Origin: Chthoniobacteraceae bacterium
GTDB taxonomy: Bacteria > Verrucomicrobiota > Verrucomicrobiia > Chthoniobacterales > Chthoniobacteraceae
DNA length: 64,000 nt
Direction: 5' to 3'
NCBI GenBank assembly: GCA_031409335.1
Contig: JANNWY010000212.1
Span: 1-64,000 of the forward strand
The notes beneath the pieces are model-generated. The model saw only the letters and a list, made by a program, of their open reading frames with translations. It made no database searches and was not told the DNA's origin. This document shows, piece by piece, positions 18,505 through 37,576 of this stretch (its first letter is position 1; every line of letters begins with the position of its first letter). The position numbers and the translations under genes are program-made.

Positions 18505-19623
18505 TCAGCGTTTCGGCATCAATTCCAGCGCGGCTTCGACGGACTGGAGCGCGCCGGAGAAACGCACCGCATCGAACCCTCCCTGGCCTTTCGACTCGTC
18601 GGTCAAAATCTTGAGCGCCTTGTCGAAATTTTCGGACTCCAGTTTTGATTCGGTTTTCAGCGCGCTCCACAAGCGATCGATCGCGAGCACCAGCACTTCG
18701 CCGCGACGGCGAAGATCGGCTGGTTCCACCTTCCCGTCGCGAAAGTCCGCGGTGATGCCGGCGTAGTTTTTCAAAAGCCGCATCGCCGAATCCTTTCCCC
18801 AATCCTGCCGCGATGCTGCGCGGGCCACGCGATCCGACGCGGCCTGCATCGCCGCGAAATCGTCCGTGTTTGGCAGGCTCGCACCGGCCTCAGTCTGGCG
18901 CAGCAGCCAGACCAACGCCTTCCAGCGGGAGACCAGCGCCGCATCGGGCGCGCTCGTCAGCCTCCAGCTAATCTCGCGCAGCCCCGCCGCCTGGCCGGTC
19001 AGCCATGCCCGCGGACCGAGCCACGTGCCTTCATCTTTCCAATGCGGCGGCTCTTCAGCCATCTGGCGGTCGAGTTCGAAAAACAACTCGGGATGCCCGG
19101 CGGCGATCAATCCGGGATCGACCACGTGATGGCAGGCGATGCACATGTTCGAGCGATGGTAGAAGTCGCCCGCCTCCCGCAATCCGGCTGCGACGCGCTG
19201 ATCGTGCGAGACATCCTTCCGCGTGTGAAAGAGCAGCCATTTTTCCGCGGGACCGTGACAGGATTCACAACTGACACCGCGGTCGATTTTCGTTTTCGGC
19301 GCGAAGCGCGAGGCGGGCAGCGCCTCCATCGGCGAATGGCAGATCGTGCAGCGCGCCGATTTCAGCGGATCGCCGATGCCCATGGATTCCGCCATCCGCC
19401 GCGATCTTTCATCGCCCAAAATCTCGTGGGCCTTCACGTGTTTGTCCTTCTTGTCCCAGATCACGGACTGCCCTTTGTCCGACCCGCCGCCGTGGCAACT
19501 GGATGATTTGCACGACTGCGATCCGACGAAATGCGGAGCGGCAATCCTGGGCTCCGCGGCGCGAATACTGCCGCTGGCGGCGACCGCCACGGACACGAGA
19601 AAAATGCGAGTGATAATGTCCAC
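18505..19623 (-). CDS. Exported multiheme cytochrome c (c554-like, about 4 hemes)
   Basis: CKSSSCH (CX4CH), CTICH, CESCH, CIACH; signal peptide after a putative GTG at 19623 (start uncertain). Confidence 0.85.
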   Translation of the reverse strand: MDIITRIFLVSVAVAASGSIRAAEPRIAAPHFVGSQSCKSSSCHGGGSDKGQSVIWDKKDKHVKAHEILGDERSRRMAESMGIGDPLKSARCTICHSPMEALPASRFAPKTKIDRGVSCESCHGPAEKWLLFHTRKDVSHDQRVAAGLREAGDFYHRSNMCIACHHVVDPGLIAAGHPELFFELDRQMAEEPPHWKDEGTWLGPRAWLTGQAAGLREISWRLTSAPDAALVSRWKALVWLLRQTEAGASLPNTDDFAAMQAASDRVARAASRQDWGKDSAMRLLKNYAGITADFRDGKVEPADLRRRGEVLVLAIDRLWSALKTESKLESENFDKALKILTDESKGQGGFDAVRFSGALQSVEAALELMPKR

Positions 19624-19792
19624 GACGAGGCGTATAGCGGAAATCCCGCCAAACGAGAAGCGGGAGAATTGCCTTTTGTGAAAATCGCCAAGCGGCACCG
19701 GAGCCGCATGGAACCTGGAAATGCGGCTCGCGCAAAATGGATCAATTCGCTTGGCGAAGTTGCGCGGCATTGATAGGCAATACTCCGCGCGC

Positions 19793-21697
19793 ATGGCTGA
19801 AATCCCGGAAAAACTCACTTCAGGCGAACCCCTCTCCACGGAGGAATTGCTGGAGTATCTGCCCGCGCTGAAGGAAATCCCCGCGGTCCTGCTCAAGCAA
19901 TTCGCCGTCGGTGCCGCGGTGCGTCGGCGCTTCCGCGCGGGCGACATCGTGTGCGACGAAGGCGCGTTCGGCTCCACCGCGTTTTTCATCGTTTCGGGGA
20001 ACGTGAACATCTTCATCAAGAATCCGATGGCCTCGGTGAAAACACGTCCGAGCGGCGGCGGGATTTTTTCGGTGTTCAAGAAGATGACCAGCTTCCTCGG
20101 CAGCAACGAGCAGGCGCAGAGCGTGGCGGAGGCCGGGTTTATCCCGATCGACGCCTCGATCGATCTGCCAAAGGAAACGCCGCTCGCCGACCTCGGGCAG
20201 GGCGAACTTTTCGGCGAAATGACGTGCCGCACTTTTCAGCCGCGCTCGGCCACGGTGCAGGCGACGGAGGATTGCGTGATGGTGGAAATGCTGCGCGTCG
20301 TGCTCGACATGCTGCTCGGCACGCGCGAGGTCGATTCGGCGACGAAGGCGACGACGAAAGTGAAAGCGCCGACGTTCAAGGGCACTTCGTTCAAGAAGGC
20401 GATGGACGACAAATACCGGCAGCGCTCGCTCATCCAGCATCTCCGCAGCGTCCCGCTATTTCACACGCTCGACCTCGATTTTTTCAATCACCTTCGCGAG
20501 AACGCGGAGCTGGTTTCGTTCGGGAAAAACGAGATCATCTGCAAACAAAACGAGCCCGCCGACGCATTCTATCTCATCCGCACCGGCCTCGTGCGGGTCG
20601 CGCAAAAAATGCCGCTCGGTCCAGGCACGAAGCCCGACTACTACGTCGATAAAACATCGAAAAAAGAATACTGGATGCAGCCGGATGGAAGTGCCGTGGA
20701 AGGGGAACTCGTGCGGACTTATTTGAAGCGCGGAGAATTTTTCGGGGAGATCGGGCTTTTGGAAAATCAACCGCGCAACGCGACGTGCTCGGCGCTCGAT
20801 GCGGTGGACGTGGTGAAGATCAGCAAGACGACCTTCGAGACGATGCTGGAGATTTTCCCGATCGTCCGCGCCACGCTGAAACAAACCGCCGCCATCCGCG
20901 CCGAAGCCGCGCAGCAGCGCGCGATGCCCGCTGGCTTGCAGCTCGACGATTTCATCACGCAGGGACTTTACGAGGCGCAAAATCTTCTCCTCATCGACCT
21001 CGACAACTGCACGCGCTGCGACGCCTGCGTGAATGCCTGCGCGGATGCGCACGATGGCGTGACGCGGCTCATCCGCGACGGCCTGCGCTACGATCATTTC
21101 CTCGTCGCCACGGCCTGCCGCTCGTGCCGCGATCCGCTGTGCATGACGCAGTGCCCGGTCGGCTCGATCCGGCGAAAAGAGAGCCTCGAAATCCTGATCG
21201 AAGACTGGTGCATCGGCTGCGCGAAATGCGCGGAACTTTGCCCATACGGAAACATCAACCTCGTCGATTTCGAGATGACCCGGGCGCAACTCGCCGAGGT
21301 CGAGCGGAAGGAAAAGGAAAAGGCCGAAGCGAAGAAAGCAGCCGATGCGAAAGCGGCTGCCGCAAAAGCCGCCGCGCCCGAAGTCAAAACAGAGCCTCCG
21401 GCATCCGTCCCATCGGCCCCATCCGTCCCATCCCCCGCCGCGAAACCAGCACCAGCTCCCGCCAAGCCCGCACCCGCCAAACCTGCCGCAAAACCCCGCG
21501 CCAAGAATATCGTCACCAAAGCAACGACGTGCGATCTCTGCACGGCGTTGAGCGTCCCGAGCTGCGTTTATGCCTGTCCGCACGATGCGGCGAAGCGGGT
21601 CGAGCCCACCGAATTCCTCGCGAAGCAAATCGGCAAGCGCGACACGGGCAAACGCTTCCGCTGGCTGAATCGCGCCGAGAACCGCACCACGCATTGA
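19793..21697 (+). CDS. Dual cyclic-nucleotide-binding domain + 4x[4Fe-4S] ferredoxin fusion
   Basis: FGEM..PRSATV and FGEI..PRNATC cassettes; CTRCDACVNAC, CRSCRDPLCMTQC, CIGCAKCAELC, CDLC..PSCVYAC. Confidence 0.92.
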   Translation: MAEIPEKLTSGEPLSTEELLEYLPALKEIPAVLLKQFAVGAAVRRRFRAGDIVCDEGAFGSTAFFIVSGNVNIFIKNPMASVKTRPSGGGIFSVFKKMTSFLGSNEQAQSVAEAGFIPIDASIDLPKETPLADLGQGELFGEMTCRTFQPRSATVQATEDCVMVEMLRVVLDMLLGTREVDSATKATTKVKAPTFKGTSFKKAMDDKYRQRSLIQHLRSVPLFHTLDLDFFNHLRENAELVSFGKNEIICKQNEPADAFYLIRTGLVRVAQKMPLGPGTKPDYYVDKTSKKEYWMQPDGSAVEGELVRTYLKRGEFFGEIGLLENQPRNATCSALDAVDVVKISKTTFETMLEIFPIVRATLKQTAAIRAEAAQQRAMPAGLQLDDFITQGLYEAQNLLLIDLDNCTRCDACVNACADAHDGVTRLIRDGLRYDHFLVATACRSCRDPLCMTQCPVGSIRRKESLEILIEDWCIGCAKCAELCPYGNINLVDFEMTRAQLAEVERKEKEKAEAKKAADAKAAAAKAAAPEVKTEPPASVPSAPSVPSPAAKPAPAPAKPAPAKPAAKPRAKNIVTKATTCDLCTALSVPSCVYACPHDAAKRVEPTEFLAKQIGKRDTGKRFRWLNRAENRTTH

Positions 21698-21707
21698 TTT
21701 CCCGCGC

Positions 21708-22649
21708 ATGAAAATCGACCGCAATCACGTCCCCTGGGCCATTTTCGTCAGCGGCGCCACGCTCATCCTCGGCGCATTTTTCTGCGCGGAATTTTTCCCG
21801 CAATATCTCCCTTTCCAGATCGACCTCCCGAAATTCCTCAGCCACGCGCCACGCGAGCGGAATAGTTACGGCGCGTCGCCGCTCGGGCTTTTTTACGGCG
21901 CGCTCGCGCTGGCGATTTTCCTGTTCGCGTCGGCGCTCGGCGTGCGCAAAAAGAAACGGCTGTGGCGCATCGGCAATGTGCAGCTCTGGCTGCGCGCGCA
22001 CATCTGGCTCACGATCCTCACGATCCCGCTCGTCCTGTTTCACAGCGGCTTCCATCTTGGCGGACCGCAGACCACGACGCTGATGGTGCTTTACACGATC
22101 GTGATGGTCAGCGGTTTCTTCGGCATCGCGCTGCAAAACTTCATGCCAAAGATGATGAAGGAGCGGCTCGCGCGGGAGGTCGTTTACGAACAAATCCCGC
22201 ACATCCGCGGCCTCATCGCCGAGTCCGCAAATGCCCTGCGCATGACTTTGCTCGCAACGATCGCGCCGCCTGCGCCGAAGGATGCAGCCGCCGGGGCCGC
22301 GGTCGCCATCGCCGTGGAGAAGGACACATCGGTTTCCGTGGTCCTCGAATTTCTGGATGAGGAATGCCTGCCCTACCTGGAGGCATCGCGGCGGGCGGCG
22401 ACGCGGATGCGGCTCGGCAATCACCGCACGAGCGATGACGTTTTCCGGCTGCTGCGCCTGAATGCGTCCGACGATTTCCGCGGCAAAATCGATGAGTTGC
22501 AGGGCTGGTGCGACGACCGCCGCCTCATGGATCTCCAGACGAGGATGCACCACTGGCTGCACGGCTGGCTGCTCATCCACGTCCCGGTTTCCTTCGCCCT
22601 GCTCGTCTTCACCTTCTGGCACGCCTACATCACCTGGGTCCACCTCTGA
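21708..22649 (+). CDS. Integral membrane protein, ferric-reductase-like di-heme b candidate
   Basis: About 5 TM helices; two H-x13-H pairs (HIWLTILTIPLVLFH, HVPVSFALLVFTFWH). Confidence 0.75.
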   Translation: MKIDRNHVPWAIFVSGATLILGAFFCAEFFPQYLPFQIDLPKFLSHAPRERNSYGASPLGLFYGALALAIFLFASALGVRKKKRLWRIGNVQLWLRAHIWLTILTIPLVLFHSGFHLGGPQTTTLMVLYTIVMVSGFFGIALQNFMPKMMKERLAREVVYEQIPHIRGLIAESANALRMTLLATIAPPAPKDAAAGAAVAIAVEKDTSVSVVLEFLDEECLPYLEASRRAATRMRLGNHRTSDDVFRLLRLNASDDFRGKIDELQGWCDDRRLMDLQTRMHHWLHGWLLIHVPVSFALLVFTFWHAYITWVHL

Positions 22650-22655
22650 GCGCAC

Positions 22656-24383
22656 ATGGCTGATCAACCGCGCACGCAAAAGCAAATCGCCCAAAAGTAC
22701 AAGGACAACCTTGATTACTACCGGCGCGGACATTTCCTCCGGCGGCTAAAACTCGCGCTCTTTCTCCTCGCCGTATTCGGCAGCATCGGCGCGGTGTTCG
22801 GCTTCCGCTTTTGGGGAAACAAACAGTTTTTCAACACCGGCCCGATCTCGCAAAACCACGCGCGTTTCGCAAATGACTGCGCGGCCTGCCACGACGGCGC
22901 GGAAACGGATTTGACCCGTGCGCTGAAGCTCGACCAGGCGGTGACGGATTTGAAAGAGGGCAATCTTCCCTCGGTCGATCTCGAAAAACTCAAGGCCGCG
23001 AGCAAGAACTTCAGCGCAGCCGAACTCGCCGCGGCCGCGCAGCGCAATCTTTCGCCCGACCGGCTCTCCGCGCTCCAGCAGGCCGTCATCAAAAAGTCAT
23101 CCCTCGCCGGGATGGATCGCGCCTGCCTGAAGTGCCACAACTCTTTCCAACTGCACCAGCCGCAGATGGAGGCGCTGAAACTGCGCGGCGTGCATCCCGA
23201 AATGCCGCTGGTGCATTCCGACCGCTGCTCCACCTGCCACCGCGAACACGTCGGCCACGGTTTGATGGCAGTCCCCGGCAGCGAATCCTGCGCGACCTGC
23301 CACGCCGATTTGCAGGAACTCGCGCGCACCCGCAACGTCATCAAAGTCGGCAGCCCGAGCCCGCCAGTGCGCCCGGAAAATCGCGACCTCGGCGACGGAC
23401 TCATCCGTTTCCTCATGCCGCAGGAAGCGAACGCGCAGCCCGCCGTGATCAGGAGCTACGCCGATGGGCATCCGCCCTTCCGCTACGAAGAACCCACTGC
23501 CCGCGATCCGGCGGTCATCAAGTACAATCATCTGCGGCACGAGCAGAAGGACATTCCGGCGGTGCGCGATGGGCGCAAACTCGCCTGCGCGGACTGCCAT
23601 CAGCTGGGCAAAGGCGGTGCCTTTTACGAGCCGGTGAAATACCAGCAGCACTGCGCGACGTGCCACGCGCTGAACGTCGTGCCCGAGTTGCCGGGCTTCA
23701 CGATCCCGCACGCCGATCCCGCTGCCGTGGTCGTCTTCACCAATACCCTCAACTCGAAGATCCTCGCCTTTCTCATCGACCAGGATCCGAGTGCAAAACT
23801 CGAAGATCTCGTCGCCAAGGTGAAGACCACTGTCGGCAACATGGTCAGTCGCGGCGACCGGCCGCTGTCCGGTTTCGGAGAACGCGCGGGCAATGAATTG
23901 CAGCGGCGCATCTTCTACACTGGCGACCCGACGGTGGACGGGCGCATTTCTGGAAGCGGAATGGACCAGCCGAAATTCACCGCCTGCGTGGGATGCCACG
24001 AGGTGACAAAAGGCGATGGCACCGTGCCCTACAAAATCACCAAGACGAACATCGCCGATCGCTGGATTCATCACGGCCCGTTCACGCACCAGCCACACAC
24101 CCACATGCTGTGCATCGACTGCCATCACAAGGAAATCGGCAGCCGGAACACCGCGGATATATTGCTCCCCTCGCAGGCCTCGTGCGCGCAGTGCCACAGC
24201 CCGCTGCGGAAAGACAAAGTGCTCGAAGTCGTCGCCGGCGGCATCGCGCCGAAACCGCGGACCCCGGAGATGGTCGAGAAGCAAAAGCGCGAAGGCGGCG
24301 TGAAATGGGAGTGCCAAAACTGCCACCAATTCCACGCCCCGCCCGAGGCGATTCAGATGCTGGAGTCCGCTTCGGCGAAATAG
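22656..24383 (+). CDS. Membrane-anchored decaheme cytochrome c
   Basis: N-terminal TM; ten CxxCH (CAACH, CLKCH, CSTCH, CATCH, CADCH, CATCH, CVGCH, CIDCH, CAQCH, CQNCH). Confidence 0.93.
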   Translation: MADQPRTQKQIAQKYKDNLDYYRRGHFLRRLKLALFLLAVFGSIGAVFGFRFWGNKQFFNTGPISQNHARFANDCAACHDGAETDLTRALKLDQAVTDLKEGNLPSVDLEKLKAASKNFSAAELAAAAQRNLSPDRLSALQQAVIKKSSLAGMDRACLKCHNSFQLHQPQMEALKLRGVHPEMPLVHSDRCSTCHREHVGHGLMAVPGSESCATCHADLQELARTRNVIKVGSPSPPVRPENRDLGDGLIRFLMPQEANAQPAVIRSYADGHPPFRYEEPTARDPAVIKYNHLRHEQKDIPAVRDGRKLACADCHQLGKGGAFYEPVKYQQHCATCHALNVVPELPGFTIPHADPAAVVVFTNTLNSKILAFLIDQDPSAKLEDLVAKVKTTVGNMVSRGDRPLSGFGERAGNELQRRIFYTGDPTVDGRISGSGMDQPKFTACVGCHEVTKGDGTVPYKITKTNIADRWIHHGPFTHQPHTHMLCIDCHHKEIGSRNTADILLPSQASCAQCHSPLRKDKVLEVVAGGIAPKPRTPEMVEKQKREGGVKWECQNCHQFHAPPEAIQMLESASAK

Positions 24384-25665
24384 GCTGCAAGCGTTCGTGT
24401 TCGCGCGCGTCCCGACCGGCGCGCCCATCGGTGCTCCCGCCAGCCAGCGAGGCCGAGCATGCTGATCGCGAAGAACACGCCCGCTGGCTCCGGCACGGGC
24501 GTGATTTCGCCAGAACCGAGGATGCTTCCCGTTCCGAGAAAGCCAGTGCCGGGTCCGCTGAAAAAGCTGATTTGATTGAGTTGATCGATCCTCAGGCCCG
24601 CATTGTTGCCACCAAAAAATAGCTGGTCGGTGCCGCCGCCGCCGGCTGGGTTCCCGGACCAGTTCCAGACACTTAGCGTTCCCGTCCAGCTTTCCAAATG
24701 ACTGTCGGCGAAATGGAGAATGCTGGCACCCGTTCCCATGTCGATGATGGAGTTGGCTGAAAGCGTCAGCGCACCAACCGTTTCGGCCAGCCCGCCCGTG
24801 CGGAGCGTCCCGCCCGCGAGGGTGATTCCAGCGGCGTCATTCACACGATCTCCCGCACCACTTAAAAGCAGAGCGCCTCCCGTGTTGATGATGACGCCGC
24901 TGGTTCCCCCGAGCGCATTGACAACCCCCGCCTCCAGAGTCCCGCCGTCCACCGTCGTTGTGCCCGTGAAAGTATTGGCTACACCGAGTGTCGTGCTGCC
25001 CGCACCTGTCTTCAGCACGCTGTTCGTATTCCCGCCCGTATCCGTGATCGCCGACCCGAGGGTAAAACTCTCCGCGAAATCCGGCGAGAGCGTCACCGTC
25101 TGCGCCCCGCCCCACACCACACTCTGCTCCAGGCACCCGATCACGATTCCCCACCCGCATCGTCATAGCCCCAATCCCGGATCACCGCCTACATTGTTCG
25201 TCAGCGTCATCCGCATCCAGCCATACAGCGGCCCCGCGCTTGCATCCGTGGTAAATTTGAACGCGAGATAACCCTCCGCACCGACCTGAAATTGCTGGAT
25301 GTCAGCGCCGATGTGCTCATGCACCGGATTCCCCGATCCGCCGATCCCGGACGCGAAAGTCAGCCCGCTCGTCACCACCATCCCCTGATAAAACCGGACC
25401 GCCGTATCCAGACTGTCCGAACCCACGCGCACCGGCTGAAACGCCGCGCTATTTCCGATCCCCACGCCGTCGAAAAACGGATTCACATCCCATCCGGTAA
25501 AAGCTGCGCCACCCGTCGCACCCGTCTCAAGGTCCAGATACACGCCCGCAAAAGTCGTCGGGATCGCGATCTCCTTCAGATCGCTGTAAATCGTCGCCGC
25601 CTGGGAATCCGGGGCGAATGGCAGAATCGCCATCGCCGTGATCAAAGGAAGTTACGAAGTTTCAT
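24353..25665 (-). pseudogene. Frameshifted PEP-CTERM protein with autotransporter-associated beta-strand repeat
   Basis: ORFs 25163-25645 and 24353-25144 join into one gene (MKLRNFL..., KTGAGSTTL repeat, VPEP tail) after repairing three frameshifts near 25645, 25185 and 25150. Confidence 0.8.
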
Positions 25666-25692
25666 ATTGAAATTCAATGGGCTGGCTGCGGA

Positions 25693-28600
25693 TTACGGCC
25701 CCATCACCATTACGCGGAAGAATTGCGCCTTTGCTCCGGTACTCAGCAAAAGCGGAAACGGAACTGTCACCGCCTCCATCTCGAAGTCCGAGGCGATCAC
25801 CGCTGGTGTGTCAGTGCTATTCTCCCAAACGCTCAAGTCCGCGCTGAACTGCACCGTGTAAGTCAGCCCCGCCCCCTCATAATTCAGCCGCCGCCCGAAA
25901 AGCGCGCGGCATGCCCCGCCCGTCGGCGTATTTTCCAGCAAAACCGCCGGGCTGCCGCGCCGCACGAGGGTTCCTGCGGTGACGATGATCGCTCCGCTCT
26001 CCGGCGTCACCGGATCGGTGCCAAAGACGAACTCGAACAGATTGATCGCCCCATCCCCGTCGAGGTCCGCCGTCGCAGGCGAGACCACGCCCGCGTTGTA
26101 GCCCGCGATCCATGATTCGTAGGCCGTCTGCCGCGTCATATTCACCGTGTAGGTTTTGAAATTGAACCCATCCTGCGCGATCACGGTGATCGTGATGATC
26201 GCGCTGTTCCCGACGGCAAATGGAAACAACCCCGTAAAAGTCCCCGCCGCTGGCAAGCCGGATGCGCCGGGGACATACACCGAGGCGTTTGTGTCGTCGG
26301 CGAGTGCATGGACCCAGATGTTCGCAGTCCCGAAAGGGACAGCGCCCGAGTAAGTCTCAACCCCCGGTGCGAAAGCCGGAGTTAAGTTCACCGGCAGGAT
26401 GGAATCCGCCTGGAGCAAAAGCGTTCCCAAATCAGCATTCGGGCTACCCGCCCGCGTCACCACCACCGAATAAGTCTTCGTCGTCGTCCCATTCTGCGCC
26501 CTCACCAGCACATCGATCGTATTCGCGCCCACATTCAGGTTCACGCTGTATGTTAGAATCAGGCTGTTGGGGGAATCGGCCGGTGAGCCATTCAGGGAAA
26601 TGGAGGCGTTGACATCCTCCCTCGTTACCGTAACTGCGATCGTGTCCGCCGAATGCGGCACACTGGCCGCATAGTTAGTAGTCGCCGATGCAAACGCAGG
26701 GCTGAGTGTCCCGGCACCAAGCGTGACGTTGGTTAGATCGGCGTTGTTGTTGAGCGGCACCACAAAAGTCGCATTCGCCCCATAAGCCGTCGTCTCCCCA
26801 TTCTGCGCCACGATGCGGAAATGGTAAGTCGCCCCCGGAATCAACCCCGAAATCCCATTGCCAACCGTCACTGCCACATTCCCATAACCCACCGCCTGCG
26901 GAGCCGTCGCCTGCCCATAAGCCGCGGTCGTCCCCCACTCAAACCAAACATTTGTCACCACCCCGTTCGGATTCACCGAACCAGTCAGCCCACCCAGGCC
27001 GGACGGGTAGCCAGTGCCAGTAAAAGTTATCACAGTCGGTTGAAGGTCCACGCCATAGCGGACGACGGCAAACTTGTCAGCCCCGGCAATTCGAGCCGTT
27101 CCGGCCACAACGATCTTTCCATCGCTTTGCAGTGCCACCCCTTCGCCATTGTCTTGGTCACTGCCTACGGGCGTTGTGAGCTTGCCACCGGTGCCGAAGC
27201 TTGGATCCAGCGCCCCGTCTGAAAGGTACCGCACCACGGCGAAGTCGAAGTCGCTACCAATATAAGAGCTTCCCGCCACCACGATTCGTCCATCACTTTG
27301 CAACGCGACGCTACTACCAACGTCGGTATTGGTGCCGATGGGAGTGATTACTTTTCCTCCGCTGCCGAAACTGGCATCCGGTGTGCCGTTCGTGGCATAA
27401 CGCACCAAAGCAACGTCGATAAATCCGCCGCTTCCCGCCACGACGATCTTTCCATCGGGTTGAAAGGCCACGCTTGCCGCGGAGTCGTTATTATTGCTCA
27501 GCGAGGTGGTTGCTTTTCCGCCGTTTCCAAAGGTGGAATCCGGCACGCCCGCAGCGGTGTAACGCACCAGTGCAAAATCGTTGCTACTTCCATTGAAGGA
27601 AAATCCCACCACCACAATTTTTCCATCGCTCTGCACTCCCACCCCGCCGACTCTATCGGGGCCGCTGCCGATCGGAGTCGTCACCTTACCACCGCTGCCA
27701 AAGCTCGAATCCAAAACGCCCGCTGCCGTAAAGCGTACTACGGCAAAGCCGTAGTTGCTGCCGTTGAAGGCAGACCCAGCCATCACAATTTTCCCGTCGC
27801 TTTGCAGTGCGATTGCGCGAACTTCATCGGAGCCATGGCCGAACGTTGTCGTCGCCTTGCCGCCATTGCCAAAGCTGGCATCGAGTGTGCCGTCCGACAG
27901 ATAGCGCATCAGTGCGAATCTTTCGCCCAATGGGGAGCCCTCACCTCCCACGACGATCTTCCCATCACTTTGCAGGGCGACACTTTTTCCAAAGCCACTC
28001 AGCGTTGTCACCTTTCCGCCGCTGCCAAAAGTAGTATCAAGCGCGCCCAGTGTTGTAAGACGCATCAAGGCGAATTCGTAGCCGCTCCCAGTGTAGGAAT
28101 CTCCCGCCACCACGATTTTTCCATCGCTTTGGATCGCCACGCTATGGCCGCGATCACCCACCCCGCTGCCTACCGAAGTAGTTACTTTCCCTGTGCCGTT
28201 AAACGTCAAATCCAGCGCCGCCGGATTGCCGCCGATGATCGCCCGCGCGGTCAGCGCAAGATCGAAGCTCCCTTCATCCGCATCGTCACTCAGCAGCATC
28301 ATCGTGCCGCCGAAGACGCCCTTCACGGTGTTTGCGAGGAAACGAATCTGCAAGTCTTGCGTCGCATTCGGGGCCAACGTGAAGGGTGCGAAGGTGCCGA
28401 CATGTTCGTAGCCAGTCGGAAGAGTCAGGCCGGTGACATGCAGGTCTTCCCCGCCGCGATTGGTCACCCGGAAAGTGCGCGTGACCGGCGTGCCGAGCGG
28501 GGTGCTGCCGAAGTCCACCGTCGAAGCGGCATCCGTGAGGATCGTTCCGACCGGCTGTTCCACCTGGATTTCCTGGGGAATGATCAACGTCAGCGTTACG

Positions 28601-36432: not shown

Positions 36433-37322
36433 AATCCATCCCATCCGCCGCCCTCGCCGTTTCACTCTTCATCACCACATCGCTTCCCGTCTTCGCGGAT
36501 GATGAAACCGACTTCGCCACCGCCCCCGATGCCTCGTGGCAACGGGCGAACGCCATTGGCACGGCGGCGTTCTCTTTCGCCGGTGGCGTGGCCACGATCT
36601 CCGCCGCACCACCGCCGCCGGAGCAAGCGCCCTTCATCGGGCGCGCGCGCGGCGCACTACTCGCGCCGACGGAATGGACCGACTGCGCCGTGTCGGTGGA
36701 TGTGGTCGCGTGGAGCGCGACGCGGGTTTTCACGAGTGTGATCACGCGCGTCGGCACGCCCGCCGGACTCGGCACGAGCCGCGGCTACAGCTTCACGCTC
36801 ATCCCTTCCACGGGCGCGGTGGAGATGCACCGGCTCGATGGGGAAATCCCGACAAGACTCAGCTCGACGCAATTCATCAGCATGACGCCCGGCGCGACCT
36901 TCCGCCTCGTGCTCGCGAGTGTGGGCGACCGTCACACCGCGCGCATTTACAACACCGCCGATCTCGCCACCCCGCTCGCGGAGGTTTCCGCATTCGATTC
37001 CACTTACGCCAGCGGACGCTGCGGCATCGTCGCGAGCACCGATTCCTACACGACCATCCAGGCGAGCTATGACAATTTCCTCGCCTGGCCTGGCGTGTCC
37101 GCGCTGCTCACAGTCCTACCTGAGTCGGGAAATTTTGCCGTGGAAACCGACGCCCCTCGTTCGCTTGCGTCGTTTTGGGAAAGCACGGACGATCTTCCCG
37201 GCGGCATCTGGCAGCCCGAATTCCCCTTGCTCACGCAACAGCCCAGCGGTGTGCTCCAGGCGACTTTCGGCCTCGCGGAACCCGCGCGCTTTTTCCGCCT
37301 GCGTCTGCTTGGGTCGCAGTGA
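36429..37322 (+). CDS. Secreted beta-sandwich protein with verrucomicrobial C-terminal domain
   Basis: ATGA-coupled to the kinase; signal peptide; ends WESTDDL...W...RFFRLRL. Confidence 0.8.
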   Translation: MKSIPSAALAVSLFITTSLPVFADDETDFATAPDASWQRANAIGTAAFSFAGGVATISAAPPPPEQAPFIGRARGALLAPTEWTDCAVSVDVVAWSATRVFTSVITRVGTPAGLGTSRGYSFTLIPSTGAVEMHRLDGEIPTRLSSTQFISMTPGATFRLVLASVGDRHTARIYNTADLATPLAEVSAFDSTYASGRCGIVASTDSYTTIQASYDNFLAWPGVSALLTVLPESGNFAVETDAPRSLASFWESTDDLPGGIWQPEFPLLTQQPSGVLQATFGLAEPARFFRLRLLGSQ

Positions 37323-37324
37323 GT

Positions 37325-37411
37325 GCGGGGGTGTCATGGGAGCGCCAGAACTGCCACCAATTCCACGCGCCGCCGGAGGCCATCCGGCAGTTCGAGGTGG
37401 CGGCGAAGTGA
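37325..37411 (+). pseudogene. Relic 3' end of the decaheme cytochrome gene
   Basis: GVSWERQNCHQFHAPPEAIRQFEVAAK* versus GVKWECQNCHQFHAPPEAIQMLESASAK*. Confidence 0.88.
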
Positions 37412-37412
37412 A

Positions 37413-37576
37413 TCCGGGTAGCACGCTCGTCCCGAGCGTTGGTCATGGCGTCCCGCCAGGACGAACTTCCAGCGCTGCCGCTGCGGAAGGCGTGAACGAA
37501 CTCGGACCGATACGTCATGGAAGTCCGCGAAGGCGGGACGCCTTTGCCAACGCTCGGGACGAGCGGGCTACCCGGA
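37413..37576. repeat. GTAG-type REP-like palindrome overlapping the valS stop
   Basis: TCCGGGTAGCACGCTCGTCCCGAGCGTTGG ... CCAACGCTCGGGACGAGCGGGCTACCCGGA. Confidence 0.85.

Follow-up and report, generated by a model that had tools for sequence, protein, structure and literature searches.

A headless variant of the PCC4/ptd gene set in a Chthoniobacteraceae bacterium, a candidate outward electron conduit with cyclic-nucleotide-binding domains at its cytoplasmic end

A 64,000-nucleotide stretch of contig JANNWY010000212.1 from a Chthoniobacteraceae bacterium (assembly GCA_031409335.1; hereafter the window) carries three closely packed genes, A, B and C, and a divergently oriented gene, T (Table 1). 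This is a distinct variant of the system outlined in the papers on PCC4 (PMC5566968) and on the ptd cluster (bioRxiv 10.1101/2023.11.21.568154). We consider the case about evenly balanced that these genes encode an outward conduit of the PCC4/Ptd type, fed by a housekeeping reductant and regulated at its entry by a cyclic nucleotide monophosphate (cNMP). A, B and C would form its inner-membrane core, with electrons passing from four Fe-S clusters in A through two predicted b hemes in B to the periplasmic decaheme C, and from C via the tetraheme T to two proteins of other contigs, an LVIVD decaheme (C193) and one that is porin-like (C83). A housekeeping reductant would dock on A, for which the best candidate is an FNR-like FAD/NADPH protein that stands alone, or else a small carrier that it reduces, and the binding of cAMP or cGMP to the cyclic-nucleotide-binding (CNB) domains of A would regulate the entry of electrons.

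An earlier reading, made from the sequence alone, knew of no characterized system with this architecture. The arrangement proves to be in print, as PCC4 subgroup II and as ptdD-G, but in the available text of both papers the clusters are described from genomes only. No functional test of such a system was found in the literature searched, with subscription journals largely outside the search, and no case of second-messenger allosteric control of an electron wire is described there. According to the available text of the PCC4 paper (PMC5566968), PCC4 combines a porin and an inner-membrane protein (IMP) with cytochromes of 4, 5 and 10 hemes, and in subgroup II an Fe-S gene (pfam13247) stands directly upstream of the IMP; the IMP has five transmembrane (TM) helices, two WX3HX13H motifs and SGXXG on helix 4, and a di-heme cytochrome b was proposed for it. 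The window resembles subgroup II in the IMP motifs, in the Fe-S gene directly upstream (10-bp gap) and in the 4- and 10-heme cytochromes, but no porin, pentaheme or 'redox gene' adjoins its genes; the main text of that paper does not use the word 'cyclic', and Verrucomicrobia are unmentioned there. The ptdA-G genes were named by Elbon et al. (bioRxiv 10.1101/2023.11.21.568154), whose available text gives PtdC as a FAD/NAD(P) oxidoreductase, PtdD as a tetraheme cytochrome, PtdE as an Fe-S protein with cNMP domains, PtdF as a ferric-reductase-like membrane protein and PtdG as a decaheme cytochrome, and their function as unknown.

BLASTP against L096, a locus with the seven-gene ptd content (assigned by gene content, not from the paper's own sequences), matched T (27%, E 2e-14), A (28%, E 1e-49), B (E 1e-14) and C (24%, E 4e-9), with identities of 24-28%; by homology, the window appears to hold ptdD-G without ptdA-C. 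It differs from the ptd cluster in several respects. The host has no close PtdC, the best match (32%) lying in an FNR-IMP-heptaheme module on C220, and its outer arm consists of the LVIVD decaheme and the porin-like protein F6, without PtdA or PtdB orthologs found by the queries used. While the preprint's available text writes of 'two 4Fe-4S clusters' in PtdE, gene A has four by its count of Cys; both of its cassettes are intact, and cNMP gating is not proposed in that text.

The gene set is not a chance grouping, since 1466 B homologs were found among 8000 candidates scored and C stands beside B in 70 of 80 GTDB loci (the best 80 of 121 by similarity to B, with genes mapped by hidden Markov models), which bears out the earlier expectation of co-conservation. 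Contig ends cut many of these loci; A was mapped in 59 of them and T in 55. By class, 37 loci are headless (5 cut at the N-terminus), 22 carry a long form of A together with NuoEF, and 21 have no usable A nearby. Among 151 genomes drawn evenly from the order, B, T, the LVIVD decaheme of about 1300 residues and F6 occur in the identical 23: nine have long A with a cluster-type NuoEF and 14, the host included, have headless A without such a NuoEF, the two forms being mutually exclusive in all 23. A was matched in three further genomes of the order, two with canonical ptd clusters and PtdC and one with a long A on a short contig. As the class thresholds were set by us and kin are not independent, these counts are patterns rather than statistics.

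The long, NuoEF-linked form resembles that of the window in having T, B, C, the LVIVD decaheme and F6, with 35-43% identity over the core of two CNB domains and the ferredoxin, but it is set apart by its NuoEF gene, by a HoxU/NuoG-like Fe-S N-terminus and by lacking the basic insert described below. In a quick tree of A (56 rows), the headless, long and PtdC-linked forms each take one change, and headless A is one clade (31 rows, SH-aLRT 98). A tree of B (50 rows) requires 5-6 switches between the headless and long labels, and well-supported branches force at least two of these. The simplest reading of these trees is that two old, alternative input modules serve one membrane core, and the alternation on the B tree suggests the same job for both. 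Headless A as a decayed long form was rejected, as it is a single clade with its own conserved insert.

For gene A, a non-exported protein with two cNMP domains, intact phosphate-binding cassettes in both and a four-cluster ferredoxin had been read from the sequence, and we find the same: the protein has no hydrophobic segment, matches Pfam cNMP_binding (E 2e-32) and holds 16 Cys in four groups. The cassettes are GEMTCRTFQPRSA (CNB 1) and GEIGLLENQPRNA (CNB 2). Counted over 118 close homologs where aligned, all 16 cluster Cys are present in at least 116 and are invariant. The ferredoxin matches HydN (E 4e-13) and DmsB (E 7e-11), and PF13247 at E 1e-4, under the curated cut-off. It shares the 16 Cys in four groups with the DmsB/NarH/HydN ferredoxins, but is fused to tandem CNB domains and has no Mo or NiFe subunit; an adjacent Mo/NiFe catalytic subunit with an NrfD/NarI-type anchor, as in DmsABC, NarGHI, Qrc or ACIII, was found neither in the window nor recurring in the 80 loci. 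In the single-chain model the CNB part has high pLDDT, with PKA/PKG regulatory subunits as fold matches, and the ferredoxin part is of low confidence (pLDDT 40-60). An alternative start at an upstream ATG (19721) is possible.

The segment that follows CNB 1 is 45 residues long in 31/31 headless proteins and 25-26 in 25/25 others. Within the insert of headless A, R178 is found in 118/118 homologs, K185 and K189 in 116/118 and K196 in 115/118, and from this basic stretch we infer a candidate docking site for the donor. Proteins of the headless clade keep five further Cys (C54, C145, C161, C250 and C332) in the CNB domains (19793-20800) almost without exception; of these, C145 is part of cassette 1 and common to headless and long forms. 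A stand-alone copy of headless CNB domain 1, 222 residues long, was seen in another genome (G357, L126:9319-9984), which also has the full gene.

Gene B encodes five hydrophobic helices and, as previously noticed, two H-x13-H pairs (H98/H112 and H291/H305), each after W-x3; it also carries SGFFG. The pairs are conserved: of the rows with a residue in the column, from 150 representatives clustered at 50%, 139/139 keep H98, 139/139 H112, 132/137 H291 and 132/133 H305, and both WX3HX13H motifs occur in 88 of the 93 full-length representatives. The distribution of charge in the loops places H98 and H291 on the cytoplasmic side and H112 and H305 outside. Gene B is thus a probable di-heme cytochrome b by its motifs. 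Its two HX13H on helices 3 and 5 are like those of the NOX/ferric-reductase TM domain (PF01794) and of cytochrome b561, from which it differs in a 140-residue cytoplasmic helical insert and in its decaheme acceptor. Among 91 aligned members, 20 match PF01794 and eight cytochrome b561, all weakly (best E 7e-4), and B has no NCBIfam match. The model of B (pLDDT 94.6) found no cytochrome b in Foldseek at E<=0.001; its best score in VIA (Z 9.6) was with helical sensor domains, and whole-chain fold searches were dominated by helical bundles. The designed two-heme bundle 7ah0 was set aside as a fold match (Z 7.3, within background). A sequence search of the PDB with B and C gave no match, and the Atlas look-alikes of B are unnamed clusters only.

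B with two hemes was modeled together with residues 12-603 of A and with three controls. The A-B pair scored 0.65, against 0.00 for the best control; the scoring mark is reached by 116/157 solved and 2/215 mismatched pairs, rates that hold roughly here (own alignments, heme included). At least 83% of the contacts were common to the runs, and partner pLDDT was at least 65. Residues 403-419 and 593-599 of A are predicted at B, with Cys406, Cys409 and Cys595 facing B residues 90-95, 143-151 and 281-285, beside H98 and H291 in sequence. The model supports binding of A to B, with the ferredoxin predicted on the cytoplasmic face of B. The cluster that docks in the model is that of Cys group I and the last Cys, which we take to be the end facing the catalytic subunit in NarH.

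B might instead be a quinol-active cytochrome b that exchanges electrons with the quinone pool, the Fe-S protein being accessory or regulatory and the head thus dispensable. NapH-type quinol dehydrogenases offer an analog, and such a role would explain why 14 of the 23 genomes retain everything except the head. Quinone exchange was also proposed for the PCC4 IMP by He et al., and in the available text subgroup I is reported without an Fe-S gene (PMC5566968). Yet the 16 Fe-S Cys are invariant, the model puts a cluster at the cytoplasmic His pair of B, which suits cytoplasmic through-flow, and three unrelated flavoproteins have been recruited to the cytoplasmic end; we consider a quinol-active B unlikely.

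Gene C has one N-terminal hydrophobic helix after nine Lys/Arg and ten CXXCH motifs, in agreement with a membrane-anchored decaheme cytochrome, and ten heme motifs are found in 63 of 65 long C homologs. Gene T, whose gap to A had been put at about 170 bp and measures 169 bp, starts with GTG at 19623 and has a signal-like N-terminus, three CXXCH and one CX4CH in a c554-like arrangement; this 3+1 pattern recurs in 51/51 long T homologs. Cytochrome c assembly proteins are encoded in the host genome. The LVIVD decaheme (C193) and F6, which stands with an HbpS-like protein on C83, are on other contigs and co-inherited, so that the outer-membrane arm would be encoded in trans. F6 appears porin-like: its Atlas look-alikes include alginate-export barrels, and it has a terminal aromatic residue and alternating strands. 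In the host genome (98% complete), single-protein queries from L096 found nothing with the porin, for a PtdB ortholog, and a 31% partial match at best with the pentaheme (PtdA). Verrucomicrobial clusters of porins and multiheme cytochromes, for which electron transfer to humic matter was proposed (PMC5615132; bioRxiv 10.64898/2026.05.27.727921), are similar in combining these two kinds of protein, but their available descriptions, on which the comparison is based, mention no cNMP or Fe-S input, and PMC5615132 gives eight hemes.

The wire could also run inward, from an external donor such as Fe(II) or reduced humics to the Fe-S protein and a cytoplasmic carrier. In its available text the PCC4 paper (PMC5566968) places PCC4 in genomes of Fe(II) oxidizers and draws it inward. 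The co-inherited outer arm would suit this direction as well. However, with most such donors, electrons would have to travel uphill to get from c hemes to [4Fe-4S] clusters of low potential and to NAD(P)+, and NOX/ferric-reductase domains of equal His layout run outward, which leaves an inward wire improbable.

Relatives provide the main clue to the donor. Three unrelated NAD(P)H heads occur at their cytoplasmic end: NuoEF, accompanied by the HoxU-like Fe-S N-terminus on long A; the FNR+2Fe-2S protein PtdC; and, in Sphingobium, a TrxR-like domain that precedes the CNB pair in a fused protein, with an LVIVD decaheme also nearby. These flavoproteins favor an NAD(P)H source and outward flow, and in the fused forms the CNB pair seems to be placed between donor and wire. 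Of the sequence-only reading, which saw a wire from cytoplasm to periplasm with donor and acceptor unknown, the anatomy is supported by the conserved His pairs, the co-inheritance of the genes and the predicted ferredoxin-membrane interface. Its novelty is not, the donor is partly indicated by the heads of relatives, and on the acceptor side other contigs carry a second decaheme and a porin-like gene that are inherited along with the set.

In the headless lineage there is no dedicated NAD(P)H dehydrogenase, and a housekeeping reductant would therefore dock on A. Of the host's own NuoEF, that on C310 was rejected as a head because it sits in a complex I operon, and the C73 copy has a low score with the cluster family. 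A stand-alone, flavodoxin-less CysJ-like FAD/NADPH (FNR-like) gene is present in 144 of the 151 genomes (host copy on C304) and adjoins the LVIVD decaheme in 7/7 headless genomes of family f3 and in one long-form genome. No other oxidoreductase recurs near T, F6 or the big decaheme of headless genomes (20 + 12 regions, crude open reading frame filter), and a crude motif scan gave no clear small 4Fe-4S ferredoxin in the host genome, flavodoxins not being searched. The FNR-like gene (L107-L112, L118) is present in two copies in 5/7 headless f3 genomes vs. at most one in the ten other f3 genomes.

Other combinations of flavoprotein and B-like protein were seen. In three loci (L098:7137-10520, L103:7385-10788 and L104:7305-10645), a NirB-like NADH flavoprotein is fused to a weak or distant B-like domain and followed by a decaheme, the first of them within a nitrate-assimilation-like cluster. 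The host itself has a second, simpler module (L130, G000:C220:5663-8701), near heavy-metal-type transport genes, in which a heptaheme cytochrome is combined with FNR+2Fe-2S and with a membrane protein distantly like B (HHalign probability 96.7).

Judging from residue conservation, A may be gated by cAMP or cGMP. It has the Gly-Glu...Arg cassette in a CNB fold by which cNMP-binding effectors are recognized, and the CNB domains sit at the site of the flavoprotein or Fe-S head of relatives, so that cNMP binding would likely regulate entry. Gly, Glu and Arg of cassette 1 are kept in 56/56 aligned proteins of four subtypes. Over the 118 close homologs, freely varying residues separate the invariant Glu and Arg of headless cassette 2, as would be expected if these two contact a ligand. 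Class III cyclases are encoded in 23/23 module genomes, with 17 matches in the host, and a CHASE2 cyclase flanks 10/22 long-form loci (kin, not independent).

The conduit might also be real with no cyclic-nucleotide switch, the CNB domains serving as a structural spacer, a dock for a partner or a binder of another ligand. This would fit the lack of a CNB residue among the named contacts of the predicted A-B interface (unnamed residues being uncertain), the long insert in cassette 2 of 18/18 long forms and the loss of both Glu and Arg of cassette 2 in 6/6 PtdC-linked relatives, as well as the lack of cyclase neighbors beside headless loci (0/37). The constancy of cassette 1 across subtypes, the invariant Glu and Arg of headless cassette 2 amid variable residues and the CHASE2 cyclases beside long-form loci speak for a ligand, and we hold an unswitched conduit to be quite unlikely.

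Several of these observations, with others, weigh against the outward, cNMP-regulated conduit. No headless donor was found, cluster-type NuoEF being missing from 14/14 headless genomes of the order sample and 31/32 from GTDB (one of the 32 has an orthologue), with a close, 50%-identical PtdC in just one of the 32. The FNR-like gene is near-universal, so its presence does not discriminate, and it flanks the big decaheme solely in family f3. Cyclases are likewise found in 111/128 other genomes (134/151 overall) and adjoin no headless locus, and the dead cassette 2 of PtdC-linked relatives means that two sites are not required family-wide. Nucleoside-binding CNB folds exist, and trypanosome PKA-R is among the fold matches of A. 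F6 has no Pfam or NCBIfam match, the barrel reading leaning on the Atlas look-alikes and the terminal aromatic residue.

The headless form might also be a signaling device that reads the periplasmic redox state through its hemes and Fe-S clusters and passes it to a partner at the basic insert. The lack of a head in the genome, the clade-specific insert and the five further, nearly invariant Cys of the CNB domains would agree with this. Nevertheless, A has no output domain, the full outer arm (two decahemes, tetraheme and porin-like protein) is kept in 14/14 headless genomes, a costly outfit for a sensor, and the alternation of inputs on the B tree suggests one job for both; a signaling role is highly improbable.

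More broadly, we put forward, tentatively and with some doubt, a widespread trans-envelope conduit with entry switched directly by a cyclic nucleotide and with swappable cytoplasmic inputs, in which the headless clade would be a stand-alone cNMP-gated adaptor tapping a housekeeping reductant via its basic insert.

Known targets of cAMP and cGMP are transcription factors, channels, kinases and acetyltransferases; if a cNMP did gate electron flow directly, this would add a target of a new kind. The module, found in 23/151 genomes of an order common in soil and sediment, may supply electrons that are transferred outside the cell to humic matter or minerals. Its headless core, at three genes, is of a size that permits expression and testing, and cultured hosts of related forms exist, e.g., Sphingobium herbicidovorans.

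The host genome measures 7.9 Mb, and its closest named homologs are from Chthoniobacteraceae. The sequencing runs that match best are of freshwater sediment; those with a large share of the sequence come from one study, and one of them is possibly the source. No RNA dataset is among the runs listed. The 10- and 6-bp gaps within A-B-C agree with those first read, and no catalytic subunit or porin adjoins the genes, as had been stated: they are flanked by chorismate synthase on one side and by PEP-CTERM and surface-protein genes on the other. An assembly artifact was rejected, a contig from an independent run covering 22696-25912 without difference. The T-A intergenic region has two short blocks common to close relatives; a scan of it gave no convincing sigma-70 site (2 sites vs. 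1.0 +/- 1.1 in shuffles, chance level). In family f3 the T gene is separated from A-B-C (L138-L143), and a gene of 665-700 residues that follows T in 5/6 of these regions is presumably a ResB-type cytochrome c biogenesis protein.

Table 1. Features of the locus, in coordinates of the window.
Feature	Position	Strand	Basis
Gene T, exported c554-like tetraheme cytochrome, PtdD homolog	18505..19623	-	PF13435 E 8e-9; PDB 1bvb E 5e-4
Divergent intergenic region, 169 bp	19624..19792	.	T-A gap
Gene A, cytoplasmic (cNMP-binding)2 - 4x[4Fe-4S] protein, headless clade, PtdE homolog	19793..21697	+	Pfam, motifs, tree, model
CNB domain 1 cassette, G141-E142...P150-R151	20213..20254	+	G141, E142, C145, R146, P150, R151 each 116/116 homologs with residue in column
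Lys-rich insert of ~20 residues after CNB domain 1, headless-clade-specific	20318..20377	+	segment lengths, conservation
CNB domain 2 cassette, G318-E319...R328	20744..20785	+	E319 and R328 118/118
Four-cluster ferredoxin domain, 16 Cys, low-complexity linker before last Cys group	20990..21592	+	conservation, model
Gene B, five-helix inner-membrane protein, probable di-heme b, PCC4 IMP / PtdF homolog	21708..22649	+	motifs, conservation
Gene C, membrane-anchored decaheme cytochrome c, PtdG homolog	22656..24383	+	10 CXXCH
Diverged copy of the final codons of gene C, outside the wire; possible insertion scar	37322..37420	+	68% aa identity over 28 residues

The tail of gene C (24290-24383) has a copy 13 kb downstream (86% nucleotide identity over 56 bp, E 9e-12), the only other copy found in the genome, which directly follows an unrelated gene and precedes valS; the tail in place is the one that matches close relatives. 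The interval between the two has genes, named from their sequence, for a Ser/Thr kinase, an ECF-like sigma factor, a PEP-CTERM protein and a surface protein of 1860 residues. No joint that skips the 13-kb stretch is among the joints listed, and the duplicated tail may mark an old insertion. Between it and valS (~37440-37560) lies a short, highly repeated element with very high contig depth.

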